From assembly GCA_000165345.1 (NCBI GenBank), contig CM000436.1, positions 1,184,001 through 1,248,000 of the forward strand: 64,000 bases of DNA, given 5' to 3'. The notes under the pieces were generated by a model. It saw only the letters and a list, made by a program, of their open reading frames with translations. It was not told where the DNA came from and ran no database searches. Positions 2,067 through 64,000 of the stretch are shown in pieces (position 1 is the stretch's first letter; the number at the start of each line of letters is the position of its first letter). The position numbers and the translations under genes are program-made.

Positions 2067-2095
2067 TTTCCCGCTCAAAAAATGGGCGGTAAGTG
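2067..2095. promoter_or_regulatory. GC-rich promoter element TTTCCCGCTCAAAAAATGGGCGG (E2F-like GGCGG/CCCGC pair) ~400 bp upstream of the 2486 gene
   Basis: An isolated GC-rich island in an AT-rich spacer. It shares CCCGCTCAAAA with the element at 63925. Confidence 0.5.
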
Positions 2096-2171
2096 GGGTA
2101 ACTGAATAATTTTATAGAATATTTATAATAATAAATATATAAAATAAATAATACATTTAATTATGGACTTG

Positions 2172-2191
2172 TTTTTTTTTTTTTTTTTTTT
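2172..2191. repeat. poly(T) homopolymer (~20 nt)
   Basis: Directly visible. Confidence 0.9.
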
Positions 2192-2485
2192 AATAATTTT
2201 TTTTTTTTAGAATAAATTAATCTTCTTGAATATTGAAGTTCACATTTTCAATTATTATTTATCTCTGACTATGTATATATAGTTTTATTTTGTGTTTAGT
2301 CTTAAAAAATATATATCAAATTAGTCTGGGCTTGATTATATAGATTTAACAGTAATATTTAGATCCTCACAATATGTCATGTTAGCAATATAAAATGAAA
2401 TTTTGATTTGAATGTAATTGAAAATTAGTTGAATAAAATAAAATAAAATTAAAAAAAAAAAATGTATTGTAATTATTTGCAATAA

Positions 2486-62200: not shown

Positions 62201-63498
62201 CCAGAATTACTTTCATTCTTCTTATCATTATCAGCTTGATAAATTAAAGAATCAACTTCTTCTTTTATCTTTTTAGATAATTCCAAAGATGGTCTATCCA
62301 AAAGAGAGATTTCTTCTCTGAAGCAATCTTTACAACCTTGAGAAAAGTTATTAGACCATTTTCTTGGGTCATTTAATATATCACTTTCTTGTAACTTTAG
62401 ACTCTCGTGATTTCTTCTCTCATTATTACTCTTGTTCTTCAATAAATACTTGTTGAACTTGACTTCATTTCTCTTTTCTTCTATCCTTTCCCATTTCTTC
62501 AAATTCCGAACTTGTTCACCACCATTATTCATCATATTTTCTTTCCCTTCTTCAATTGTATTTTCAGATTCAATTTCCTTATCTTTGTTGACTCTCACTC
62601 TACCATTACTATTATAAGTTCTTTTTCTAACTGCTCTAACTGTTGATACTCCACTAATATACCTATTCTTGCTCTTGGGGACGGTTTTTGGACCCCAAAG
62701 CTCAGAAGAACCCTTTTCTTTTTGCTGTCTCTTTCGACCTTTCCTATTTTCCTCATTCACCTTACTGACTTCTTCTGTAGATACTTCTCGTACTTCGCTC
62801 TCTCTGATTTGAATATTTTTAGTTTCTTGATCTAAATTATTCTGACTTTCATTACTAATATCTCCCTCATCCAATTCTCCTATATCTTTGTGTTTCTTGT
62901 TATTAATAGAATTTGTCTCTTTTTTCATATTATCTAAATCATTATCCAATCTAGAATCTTCTTGTGATGGCTTATTTTCAGAAACTAATAATCTTGGTAA
63001 TAGCCTTGAGCCTATCTTTCTACTATCCAATATTATCTTTGAAATCTTATCTTTGAACTTTAGCCAATAATCCCTCATCTCATTTGGAGGCTGATTAAAC
63101 TCCTCCCATTTAGTATAATAATGATCATTTTTCCACTTTATAAAGCATTCAAGTATATCAGATTTACTTTCCTCCAATTGAATTATTTCCAAGTATACAC
63201 CAAAGTATTTGTCTTGTTTGATTTGGTCACTTATCACCTCTTTTTGTTCTTTAGAGTCACTTTTGCTCGTCCAAGTATTTCTAATTCGTTCCAAAATATC
63301 TTCAAGGTTCAATTTTTCCTCCTCTTTATCTAACTGATCTTGAACTAATAACTTTAAATCTGATAATGCTTTGTCCAACTTTTGTTTATAAGGCAAAAAT
63401 TGCTCACTATATGGAGTTAGTGGCAAATTTAATACTACATCTGAAAGGTCTGTACCATTATATATTTGTCTTATTGTTCGCTTGTTTCCAGTACTCAT
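59233..63498 (-). CDS. RecQ-family DNA helicase (1421 aa)
   Basis: [84 protein letters not shown] and the later [25 protein letters not shown] are RecQ helicase motifs I, Ib, II and V-VI. ATG at 63498-63496. Confidence 0.85.
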   Translation of the reverse strand: [1421 protein letters not shown]

Positions 63499-63920
63499 TT
63501 CATCCTATTTTAAGCTTAATTATTACTAATACTTTAACAGTTAATTATTATTATTATTATTATTATTTTACCAAAGAGAAATTCAAGTTATTGTAAGGTC
63601 TAGTATAGTTAATCAATGAGAATATATTATGGTTTTTAACTCTTCAAAAAGTCAAATGTACCACTAGCAAATCCCAATTCTTTATATAATCTACTCAGCT
63701 TTCTTCTCAAAATTCTTTGATTATATTCCACCTGATACTATTACTCTATTTCCAAATCCAATTTTTCCAACCTCTTTTGTCATCTAATTCTTTATATATA
63801 ATGCTAACATTCAACCGGATAATACATGTTACTGATGTTTTTCCTTTTTGGCTATTTTCTTTTTCTTTTTTTCCCTTTGCTACCTTTTTGTTACATTTAA
63901 CTCTTGGGAAAGTGTGGGGA

Positions 63921-64000
63921 AGATTGCCCGCTCAAAATTGCATGTATTAAGCTCCGGTAAAATGTTCATGTAGTTTTGCAATACCGGTATGCCTGCATGC
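63921..64000. promoter_or_regulatory. TTGCCCGCTCAAAATTGCATG ... CTCCGGTAAAATG ... AATACCGGTATGCCTGCATGC, upstream of the RecQ gene (minus)
   Basis: CCCGCTCAAAA (as at 2069), two CCGGTA copies and a terminal GCATGC. Confidence 0.45.

Follow-up and report, generated by a model that had tools for sequence, protein, structure and literature searches.

The window, by which we mean the whole 64,000-nucleotide stretch that was analysed, derives from chromosome 8 of Cryptosporidium parvum: its DNA is 99.8-99.96% identical to CP141125.1 and its proteins have exact matches in C. parvum Iowa II and in other C. parvum assemblies. A map of 21 genes derived from the annotation served to set three compartments, i.e. 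5'-bearing spacers (11.5 kb), genic sequence (49.2 kb) and 3'-3' (convergent) spacers (3.2 kb). None of the E2F or DP genes lies in the window. With the GC-rich boxes masked, the spacers are 78.7% AT, less than the value above 85% given in the preliminary description. We defined an E2F-like core as GCGSS/SSCGC, i.e. GCG[CG][CG] or its complement (a 5-mer), and merged adjacent matches into sites. There are 33 sites in the window, nine of them within genes; all listed boxes were entered without strand assignment (“.”). They fall into two classes: (T)TGGCGCC(A), which is a palindrome, and TTTGGCGGGAA, which also occurs as its complement TTCCCGCC. The genes with boxes upstream form a mixed set, comprising V-ATPase, RIC1, TAF9, Fcf1, AP-sigma, PAN2 and a helicase.

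The 5'-bearing spacers hold 23 merged sites (2.0/kb), for 2.44 +/- 1.48 expected from the null model of 1000 dinucleotide shuffles. The nine sites of genic sequence (0.18/kb) show no excess over the 6.9 expected, and the convergent spacers contain a single site (0.31/kb). The density in 5' spacers is about 11-fold that of genic sequence (binomial p = 1e-10) and also exceeds that of convergent spacers (p = 0.02). The boxes are therefore not equally frequent in 3' spacers and coding sequence, the outcome that the preliminary description had named as counting against its promoter reading. At least one site is present in 14 of the 15 5'-bearing spacers, for 2.2 expected from the shuffles, and of 20 genes 18 are preceded by a spacer with one or more cores, which bears out the claim of a box in front of nearly every gene.

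The same words emerge without a predefined motif. In an unbiased 6-mer screen of the 5' spacers the top word is TGGCGC (14 vs 0.27 expected), and the next-ranked are GGCGCC (7 vs 0.06) and GGCGGG (6 vs 0.16); GCATGC is also over-represented (8 vs 0.37). Over the whole window TGGCGC has 15 matches (0.90 expected), GGCGGG 10 (0.57 expected), and the 10-mer CATGTGGCGC four copies (0.01 expected). The position matrix shows an SSCGCC core, T-rich on its 5' side and A-rich on its 3' side. The full TTTSSCGC occurs in seven 5'-spacer instances and TTSSCGC in nine, against 3-4 in genic sequence, which is four times as much DNA. Other elements cluster with the cores: GCATG lies at most 30 bp from 7 of the 23 sites (1.65 expected), and so does a G-box (7 of 23, 1.36 expected).

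A spacer usually holds a single cluster or two, at a distance of 90-430 bp from the ATG. The nearest core stands 92-431 bp from the ATG in 15 of 20 genes (90-400 bp in the preliminary description). Tandem spacers, which also contain a 3' end, hold 15 of the 23 spacer sites, and spacers flanked by 5' ends on both sides, with no 3' end, hold seven in 5.3 kb. Three of the five head-to-head spacers have a single cluster, or two boxes close together, between the gene starts; that of V-ATPase/RING-FHA has two separate clusters and that of DnaJ/TPS none. The single cluster described for divergent pairs is found between AP-sigma and PAN2 (at 44231) but not between DnaJ and TPS. As a map of promoters, a use proposed in the preliminary description, the boxes serve only in rough terms: they mark 14 of the 15 promoter-bearing spacers, but 9 of the 33 sites are genic and at least one promoter region, that of DnaJ/TPS, carries a different module. 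The boxes alone give neither an orientation nor a transcription start.

Conservation was assessed at syntenic loci in as many as seven additional Cryptosporidium species or isolates, the alignments taking in 12 spacers and ten species or isolates. The leftmost element (TTTCCCGCTCAAAAAATGGGCGGT, 2067..2090) consists of an E2F-like box and a weaker inverted partner, 414 bp upstream of the RIC1 ATG; it starts 2 bp past the stop of a CPSF_A-family gene and includes GGGCGG at 2084. In parvum, tyzzeri, meleagridis, ubiquitum and felis a core is found 4-6 bp from this stop; in bovis the distance is 17 bp. An inverted core pair, 14 bp apart (CGGCCGCCTGACTTTGGCGGGT, 8231..8252), lies 211-225 bp upstream of the ATG of an 88-aa gene; tyzzeri, meleagridis and felis retain both the pair and its 14-bp spacing. 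The V-ATPase proteolipid gene, on the minus strand, has ~400 bp upstream of its ATG the element TTCCCGCCTGATTTTCCCGCCA (10162..10183), a direct repeat of GGCGGGAA, 13 bp start-to-start. This 13-bp spacing is the same in seven of seven species although the intervening bases vary, and the pair stands out as a conservation island in the spacer profile.

In the same spacer, ~900 bp upstream of the RING-FHA gene ATG, a block of ~110 nt (11270..11385) contains TGGCGC (11291-11296) and GGCGCC (11350-11355), 59 bp apart, together with CCCCAC, CCCCTCC (G-box-like), TATAATATAAA, CTGCTCGTGAC and ACACACA. With 76% mean column identity over seven species and long invariant runs, it is the top conservation peak of the 2.5-kb spacer; we treat it as a DNA-level composite promoter. 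A structured RNA gene at 11270-11385 was considered and rejected: Rfam holds nothing that matches the block, whether at its gathering threshold or with E <= 1, the RNAalifold covariation term is unfavourable and compensatory pairs amount to 1/24. A telomerase-RNA template was likewise discarded, the V-ATPase/RING-FHA spacer having no (CCTAAA)n-type 9-mer. Unannotated protein genes were sought in the spacers 9769-12275 and 22529-24519, which gave short low-complexity ORFs only.

The NIF/FCP1-like phosphatase gene has two cores 40 bp apart, each abutted by a (G)CATG element (GGCGCCTGCATG ... GCGCCACATG, 15274..15323), 800-845 bp upstream of its ATG. Both are kept in tyzzeri and one of the two in meleagridis; distant species are not alignable here, and the cores of the RING-FHA/NIF spacer are not retained in them. 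Closer to the NIF gene, 414 bp from its ATG, ACCGCCGCCCCAC, a GC box overlapping a G-box, precedes GGTACCGGTA (15701..15727); the ACCGGT + GGCGG neighbourhood is retained in tyzzeri, meleagridis and ubiquitum. Two boxes precede the 110-aa gene: TGGCGGGC (18599..18606), 349 bp from the ATG and retained at ~330-350 bp in tyzzeri, meleagridis and ubiquitum, and the palindrome TGGCGCCA (18857..18864), 92 bp from the ATG. In parvum, tyzzeri, meleagridis, ubiquitum and felis its GGCGCC keeps a distance of 80-98 bp from the start codon.

The TAF9/Kazal divergent spacer contains ACCGCCAAAA (20436..20445), a weak variant (TTTTGGCGGT) outside the 5-mer core definition, and CATGTGGCGCAT (20718..20729), in which CATG is combined with an E2F-like core, at 376 bp from the ATG of the Kazal-domain gene and 644 bp from that of TAF9. 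Of the 21 coordinates in the preliminary description, 20 fall within a few bases of a core; the exception is 20445, 9 bp off for a box at 20436-20445. Its list did not include 15314 (GCGCCACATG), 35816 and the nine genic cores. The boxes at 35816, 20436 and 63927 are weak.

A canonical E2F-like box with a TGCATGCA-type element (TTTGGCGGGAAAAGAATTTGCATGCAA, 24305..24331) had been placed upstream of a gene, which is incorrect: it sits in the 2-kb Kazal/Myb 3'-3' spacer, 205 bp past the stop of the Myb-domain gene, and is the sole core of that spacer, with no annotated gene there. The box and GCATGC are both retained in C. meleagridis. This site may serve as a lncRNA promoter, since published C. 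parvum lncRNA promoters carry E2F-like and TGCATGCA-type motifs.

Two perfect palindromes of 12 bp are exactly as first reported. That at 32112..32123 (TTTGGCGCCAAA) is 368 bp upstream of the ATG of a Myb-domain gene, and TTTTGGCGCCAAG is retained from it in C. meleagridis. That at 44231..44242 (CCCGCGCGCGGG), made of overlapping cores, is 152 bp from the AP-sigma ATG and 379 bp from the PAN2 ATG; in parvum, ubiquitum, canis and the SRR31860986 isolate, SSCGCGCGCGGG precedes the PAN2 start codon by 341-373 bp, and meleagridis retains the shorter CGCGCGCGGG. Between them, a weak ACCCCGC then TATACCGGTAAT (35814..35848) lie 56-80 bp upstream of the SUN-domain gene ATG; the weak CCCCGC at 35816, sole box of the SUN/WD40 spacer, is retained in C. 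meleagridis. So are both GGCGCC of the pair upstream of Fcf1/Utp23 (CATGTGGCGCCAT + TTTGGCGCCATA, 38698..38746), 35 bp apart and 195-230 bp from the ATG. The box GGCGGGAAA (40486..40494) is 340 bp upstream of the ATG of a 392-aa gene, and TTTAGGCGGGAAA is retained there in C. meleagridis and in C. canis, with 307 bp between it and the ATG in the latter. The 155-aa gene has, 148 bp upstream of its ATG, an E2F-like core combined with CATG and a G-box (CCCGCCTAAACATGTGGGGG, 43216..43235), from which CCCGCC(T/C)AA is retained in ubiquitum, canis, the SRR31860986 isolate and meleagridis.

The core pair TGGCGCCAATATGCGCGCGGAAA (50824..50846), 11 bp apart, is 157-169 bp upstream of the ATG of a 312-aa WD40 gene; ubiquitum and the SRR31860986 isolate show a spacing of 11-15 bp at a similar distance. 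The last box, TGCCCGCTCAAAA (63925..63937), includes CCCGCTCAAAA as at 2070 and precedes the start codon of the DEAD-box helicase gene by 431 bp, with GCATG and ATACCGGTAT nearby (63980-63995). Within genes, the DnaJ coding sequence has one conserved core cluster, at its 3' end.

Taken over the alignments, distant species share 54 of 93 core bases without change (58%), while for the other spacer bases the count is 1175 of 8019 (15%), an odds ratio of 8 that none of 5000 permutations reached. MAFFT could favour anchoring on GC-rich words, yet non-core G/C bases show low invariance. Box position and pair spacing are retained where the surrounding spacer has diverged beyond alignment, over a range that takes in C. 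bovis, C. felis and C. canis besides C. parvum. The 5'-spacer bias is found again in tyzzeri, meleagridis and ubiquitum (2.1-2.4/kb vs 0.2-0.3/kb in genic sequence), and the 3'-3' spacers of tyzzeri, meleagridis, ubiquitum and bovis contain zero sites. As judged from these comparisons, the E2F-like boxes are under purifying selection genus-wide. This conservation of position and spacing is circumstantial support for their function, and singles out the sites 10162-10183, 11270-11385 and 44231-44242.

The DnaJ/TPS divergent spacer (54181-54888) behaves differently, the core scan finding zero E2F-like cores in it. It carries at 54366..54416 (strand “.”) another module, GTCTCG x3, then TGCATACCGGTAT, then TTAAG. 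In parvum, ubiquitum and canis this module (GTCTCG x3 + ATACCGGTAT) is retained ~220 bp ahead of the DnaJ start codon, and in none of these three species does the spacer contain an E2F-like core. The palindrome ATACCGGTAT is reported as an oomycete promoter motif as well.

We consider it likely that the boxes are E2F-like cis-regulatory elements of Cryptosporidium promoters, with E2F/DP as their putative reader. Motif class, density in 5' spacers, purifying selection and published ATAC-seq agree on the promoter reading first proposed for them. E2F motifs lie in ATAC-seq open-chromatin peaks upstream of C. parvum genes, over half of these peaks being annotated as bidirectional promoters (Xiao et al. 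2025, bioRxiv 10.1101/2025.01.17.633476), and the motif is reported as dominant among the open-chromatin peaks of sporozoites. According to the literature, Cryptosporidium is also the only apicomplexan genus that keeps E2F and DP genes, two or three E2F and two DP being counted in C. parvum. An E2F/DP winged-helix heterodimer would sit on the CGCGC-type core, one half per subunit, with TGGCGCCA and TTTGGCGGGAAA as candidate bound sequences. Once bound, it may hold the promoter region open or recruit the transcription machinery, often bidirectionally, while ApiAP2 factors at neighbouring TGCATG and G-box sites could confer stage specificity.

The boxes could be selected promoter elements read by another factor, a zinc-finger protein or other GC-box binder, with a coincidental likeness to E2F sites; we regard this as unlikely. 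Many sites are without the TTT of the canonical TTTSSCGC, some are Sp1-like (GGGCGG at 2084, CCGCCGCCCCAC at 15701), and nearly all genes are served instead of a cell-cycle set. In addition, E2F expression profiles do not follow those of the motif-bearing ribosomal protein genes (PMC3734150). In the searchable literature we found no experiment demonstrating occupancy by C. parvum E2F/DP (EMSA, protein-binding microarray, ChIP, CUT&RUN); a paper on a DiCre promoter concerns the E2F gene's own promoter only and offers no functional evidence on E2F sites, and a 2025 review notes that validation is missing for most Cryptosporidium regulatory components. But textbook E2F/DP sites have just the sequences seen here, namely palindromic [C/G]GCGC[G/C], the canonical E2F/DP core (PMC3734150), flanked by T/A, and TTTGGCGGGAA, and the apicomplexan that retains E2F/DP is the one in which this motif is reported dominant. 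Moreover, when C. parvum AP2 domains were assayed on protein-binding microarrays, the motifs recovered were TGCAT, CACACA and G-box, not the GGCGCC type.

It is much less probable that the boxes serve the 3' end of the upstream gene (termination or polyadenylation) or act as structural punctuation (nucleosome exclusion, replication origins) and not as promoters. Such a role would fit the 15 of 23 spacer sites in tandem spacers, the box at 2067 that follows a stop by 2 bp in a position retained in several species, the box at 24305 and the conserved cluster at the DnaJ coding 3' end. A 3'-end signal is nevertheless disfavoured because spacers bounded by 3' ends on both sides hold a single site here and none in the four other species, whereas seven boxes fall in those bounded by 5' ends only; ATAC-seq also puts the motif in upstream regulatory peaks. 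Finally, a mere effect of chance or composition, with GC-rich words conspicuous in AT-rich DNA, can be dismissed, for although the words that define a box have only 5-6 bases and some of the cited boxes are weak, the dinucleotide shuffles rule it out (~9x more sites observed, no shuffle near that count), coding sequence, which is more GC-rich, shows no enrichment, and sites are conserved between species.

To return to the E2F-like promoter elements, the genes served are housekeeping ones (V-ATPase, PAN2, Fcf1, TAF9, AP-sigma, helicase), which therefore points to a general promoter element and not to a cell-cycle switch. A bolder extension, which we put forward tentatively and rather doubt, is that genus-wide the boxes are the main general promoter-defining element and not a cell-cycle switch: through a grammar of fixed spacings they would organise the open chromatin of housekeeping promoters and of bidirectional ones. 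The spacings in question would be 13 bp (V-ATPase, 7/7 species), 14 bp (88-aa gene) and 11-16 bp (RIC1 and the 312-aa WD40 gene), and fixed pair spacing would imply cooperative binding of two dimers. TGCATG and G-box neighbourhoods would be obligatory, and a minority of promoters would depend on the alternative conserved module, GTCTCG x3 + ATACCGGTAT.

The Sp1-type GC box GGGCGG is found in mammalian housekeeping and CpG-island promoters; the Sp1 consensus GGGGCGGGG is bound by a C2H2 zinc-finger protein. Like the boxes of the window it is short, GC-rich, and present in several copies on housekeeping, often bidirectional promoters. However, the commonest words of the window, TGGCGC and GGCGCC, are not Sp1 words; the consensus is not of the GGGGCGGGG type, and GGGCGG/CCGCCC occurs at few sites only (2084, 15701). 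The likeness is one of role, not of family. The ApiAP2 motifs, TGCATGCA (AP2_1), the G-box G[T/C]GGGG and CACACA (Oberstaller 2013, 2014), are over-represented in the same spacers and occur more often than chance at 30 bp or less from an E2F-like core, but they are other sequences, bound by AP2 domains.

With animal and plant E2F/DP sites, TTTSSCGC and for instance TTTCCCGCC/TTTGGCGGG in Arabidopsis (Zheng et al. 1999 and Ramirez-Parra et al. 2003, as cited in PMC3734150), the boxes share a symmetric CG-rich core, T-rich/A-rich flanks, promoter location and function in either orientation. Those sites are found mainly at cell-cycle and DNA-replication genes and are governed via Rb-family pocket proteins, whereas the motif of the window fronts almost every kind of gene, with no association to cell-cycle or replication genes; no Rb orthologue is reported in Cryptosporidium (PMC3734150). 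The general gene mix and the lack of a reported Rb speak against a cell-cycle role of the classical kind but leave E2F/DP binding unaffected.

The closest relatives are the C. parvum E2F-like motifs 3 (DTTGSCGCCH) and 4 (TTTGGCGGGAAV) of Oberstaller 2013 (PMC3734150), reported for 114 + 47 gene clusters. In the C. parvum literature the E2F-like motif is found upstream in 161 of 200 clusters and is the most over-represented upstream motif of the genome; an earlier sighting on chromosome 6 is credited to Bankier et al. 2003 in PMC3734150. Sequence, 5' over-representation and organism all place the boxes in this family: both sequence classes, the upstream location and the association with bidirectional and lncRNA promoters are alike, and nothing essential differs. 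The boxes are thus the already described E2F-like motifs and not a discovery, and the window is a clean local demonstration, with nothing new in kind, of a motif that appears to front most genes of Cryptosporidium, a leading cause of childhood diarrhoea whose gene regulation is poorly understood. Beyond Oberstaller 2013, it adds the genus-wide conservation of position, the fixed pair spacings of 13-14 bp and the co-clustering with GCATG and G-box elements.

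The window has a G+C content of 27% and encodes ordinary eukaryotic proteins. Five of the six long ORF products tested match C. parvum proteins exactly, including the V-ATPase proteolipid (EAK89611), the Fcf1/Utp23 protein (cgd8_4870), a DnaJ protein and PAN2 (EAK89620), and alignment with annotated C. parvum loci of CP141125.1 gave 99.8-99.96% identity, which places the window on C. parvum chromosome 8. The 21 genes annotated on CP141125.1 (coordinate approximately 1,175,570 + window coordinate) were carried over as a gene map; several are small or contain introns and are missed by a simple ORF scan. 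This map delimits nine tandem spacers (5.7 kb), five divergent 5'-5' spacers (5.3 kb), six convergent 3'-3' spacers (3.2 kb) and a right-edge region of 502 bp upstream of a helicase gene.

After merging overlapping matches to the E2F-like core (GCG[CG][CG] or its complement) we counted 33 sites: 23 in 5' spacers, i.e. those with at least one gene 5' end, nine genic and one convergent. The density is 2.0/kb over the 11.5 kb of 5' spacers, against 0.18/kb over 49.2 kb of genic sequence (binomial p = 1e-10) and 0.31/kb over 3.2 kb of convergent spacers (p = 0.02). Boxes are clearly rarer in 3' spacers and in coding sequence than in 5' spacers, and the core observation of the preliminary description, a concentration upstream of genes, holds. 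In 1000 dinucleotide shuffles the 5' spacers contained 2.44 +/- 1.48 sites (maximum 7), and such shuffling left 2.2 of these spacers occupied, compared with 14 of 15 observed, while genic sequence showed no excess of cores (9 observed, 6.9 by shuffle). Over the whole window, TGGCGC occurs 15 times for 0.90 expected and GGCGGG 10 times for 0.57 (separate shuffles). When every 6-mer of the 5' spacers was screened without a preset motif, the top words were TGGCGC (14 vs 0.27), GGCGCC (7 vs 0.06) and GGCGGG (6 vs 0.16), followed by GCATGC/TGCATG, TACCGG/ACCGGT, GAGAGA and GTGGGG. At least one core is present in the upstream spacer of 18 of the 20 genes having such a spacer in the window, and the distance from the ATG to the closest core is 92-431 bp in 15 of the 20.

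Some particulars of the preliminary description have to be amended. An E2F-like core lies within a few bases of 20 of its 21 positions; the box cited at 20445 (20436-20445) is a weaker TTTTGGCGGT variant, and sites 15314 and 35816 had been overlooked. A single cluster between the two starts had been proposed for four divergent gene pairs. This is true of AP-sigma/PAN2 (44231) and TAF9/Kazal (20436, 20718), whereas DnaJ/TPS has no core and SUN/WD40 only a weak CCCCGC (35816). The spacers, with boxes masked, are 78.7% AT rather than above 85%. Box 24305, regarded as gene-upstream, sits in a 3'-3' spacer with no annotated gene downstream. This 2-kb spacer (22529-24519, N bases at 23829-23836, 23952 and 24438) separates Kazal-domain and Myb-domain genes and holds no annotated gene, only short low-complexity ORFs. 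Box 24305 is its sole composite of an E2F-like core and GCATGC; that it is kept in C. meleagridis suggests an unannotated, perhaps non-coding, transcript.

The boxes fall into two sequence classes, palindromic (T)TGGCGCC(A) and TTTGGCGGGAA/TTCCCGCC, with T-rich 5' flanks and A-rich 3' flanks. Close pairing is frequent: 8233/8247 (14 bp), 10164/10177 (13 bp), 50825/50836 (11 bp), 2070/2085 (about 15 bp) and, within one palindrome, the overlapping cores of 44231-44242. Other established C. parvum motifs gather around the boxes: GCATG lies at most 30 bp from 7 of 23 sites (1.65 expected, P = 0.0002), as does a G-box (7 of 23, 1.36 expected), and the composite CATGTGGCGC has four copies in the window for 0.01 expected.

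We compared the syntenic loci of C. tyzzeri, C. meleagridis, C. ubiquitum, C. felis, C. bovis, C. canis and the Cryptosporidium isolate of run SRR31860986. The 5'-spacer bias recurs in the AT-rich species, at 2.1-2.4/kb vs 0.2-0.3/kb genic in C. tyzzeri, C. meleagridis and C. ubiquitum and at 1.5/kb vs 0.34/kb in C. bovis; only in C. canis, which is GC-rich, is it blurred. The two GGCGGG cores that precede the V-ATPase gene keep a 13-bp distance in each of the seven species compared, while the bases between them vary; the GGCGCC pair 11291/11350 keeps a spacing of 56-59 bp, again in 7/7. Four species have the palindrome SSCGCGCGCGGG at 341-373 bp upstream of the PAN2 ATG, and a core follows the stop of the CPSF_A-family gene by 4-6 bp in five. 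Alignment of nine spacers shows 54 invariant positions among 93 core bases, compared with 1175 among 8019 others (odds ratio 8, Fisher p 1e-21), a value matched by none of 5000 circular permutations; non-core G/C bases in these spacers show no special conservation. The absence of a core is kept too, the DnaJ/TPS spacer lacking it in C. parvum, C. ubiquitum and C. canis.

This E2F-less spacer carries, at 54366-54416, GTCTCG three times and then ATACCGGTAT, a module that the same three species all retain, some 220 bp upstream of the DnaJ ATG. The palindrome (A)TACCGGTA(T), also found at 15718-15727, 35838-35847 and 63980-63990, represents the third most enriched word family of 5' spacers (TACCGG, 10 vs 0.62), and all four ACCGGT hexamers of the window are within 5' spacers. 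The palindrome is absent from the 25 motifs of Oberstaller 2013 (PMC3734150); in oomycetes it has been reported as a promoter motif (PMC10031896).

Four other observations were made. A block of about 110 nt (11270-11385) is nearly invariant in seven Cryptosporidium species, with weaker conservation to about 11610. It comprises two E2F-like boxes (11291/11350), two G-box-like elements, a TATA-like run, CTGCTCGTGAC and ACACACA, and lies about 900 bp upstream of the RING-FHA ATG in a spacer of 2.0-2.5 kb (1.7 kb in C. felis). It has no Rfam match, covariation gives no support for RNA structure, and it may mark where a long 5' UTR, or an unannotated transcript, begins. In the last ~15 codons of the DnaJ CDS (52335-52361, minus strand), at a convergent gene junction, TACCGCCATTCCCCACATGTGGCGCCT joins E2F-like core, G-box and E2F-like core; its GC-rich codons look unusual for so AT-rich a genome. 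Its DNA sequence is conserved between C. parvum, C. ubiquitum, C. canis and the SRR31860986 isolate, and it could be an embedded antisense-transcript promoter or simply reflect constraint on the protein tail. The 155-aa and AP-sigma genes, separate in C. parvum (42402-44084), form one model in C. ubiquitum (L020, 1631-3225; 282 aa) and C. canis (L021, 1977-3427; 259 aa). The conserved CCCGCC box, intergenic in C. parvum, is internal to both fused models and so suggests that they are mis-annotated. Finally, AATCCTAAAAACATAAAACCTAAAACTCC (40367-40395), met in a search for a telomerase-RNA template, includes nine consecutive bases that are complementary to the TTTAGG telomere repeat, probably by chance.

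Compared with the published consensus, the two box classes are E2F-like motifs 3 (DTTGSCGCCH, 114 expression clusters) and 4 (TTTGGCGGGAAV, 47 clusters) of C. parvum (Oberstaller 2013, PMC3734150). The symmetric [C/G]GCGC[G/C] core is the contact of E2F/DP heterodimers (via PMC3734150). Among apicomplexans, E2F and DP genes occur in the genus Cryptosporidium only; those of C. parvum include cgd1_1560/1570 and cgd6_1430 (E2F) and cgd7_3650 and cgd8_1850 (DP). From their sequence, compartment bias, conservation and co-clustering we infer that the boxes, with TGGCGCCA and TTTGGCGGGAAA as candidate E2F/DP box sequences, are promoter elements that would act on transcription and are most probably bound by E2F/DP. 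Reading by another factor seems unlikely; the C. parvum AP2 domains tested on protein-binding microarrays selected TGCAT, CACACA and the G-box, not the E2F-like motif. A 3'-end or purely structural role is highly improbable, since 3'-3' spacers are almost empty and 5'-5' spacers, without any 3' end, carry boxes. A chance origin is excluded. E2F/DP at the boxes would open or mark the promoter, often in both directions, and adjacent ApiAP2 sites would contribute stage specificity. A classical cell-cycle role does not emerge among the genes served in the window, because these are housekeeping genes of mixed kinds and no Rb orthologue has been reported from Cryptosporidium (PMC3734150); this is no argument against E2F/DP binding.

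The boxes are a rediscovery of a well-documented feature and would not surprise the specialist (Oberstaller 2013 and 2014; Xiao 2025; and, as cited in later papers, Bankier 2003 and Mullapudi 2007). Of 200 co-expression clusters, 161 have an E2F-like motif upstream, and the motif lies at most 100 bp upstream of many lncRNAs. In sporozoite ATAC-seq, the E2F motif is also the most prominent one of the regulatory peaks, over half of them annotated as bidirectional promoters (Xiao 2025). To this known system the region makes modest additions: a genus-wide footprinting, pair spacings that are strictly conserved and, at an E2F-less promoter, an alternative module that is likewise conserved.
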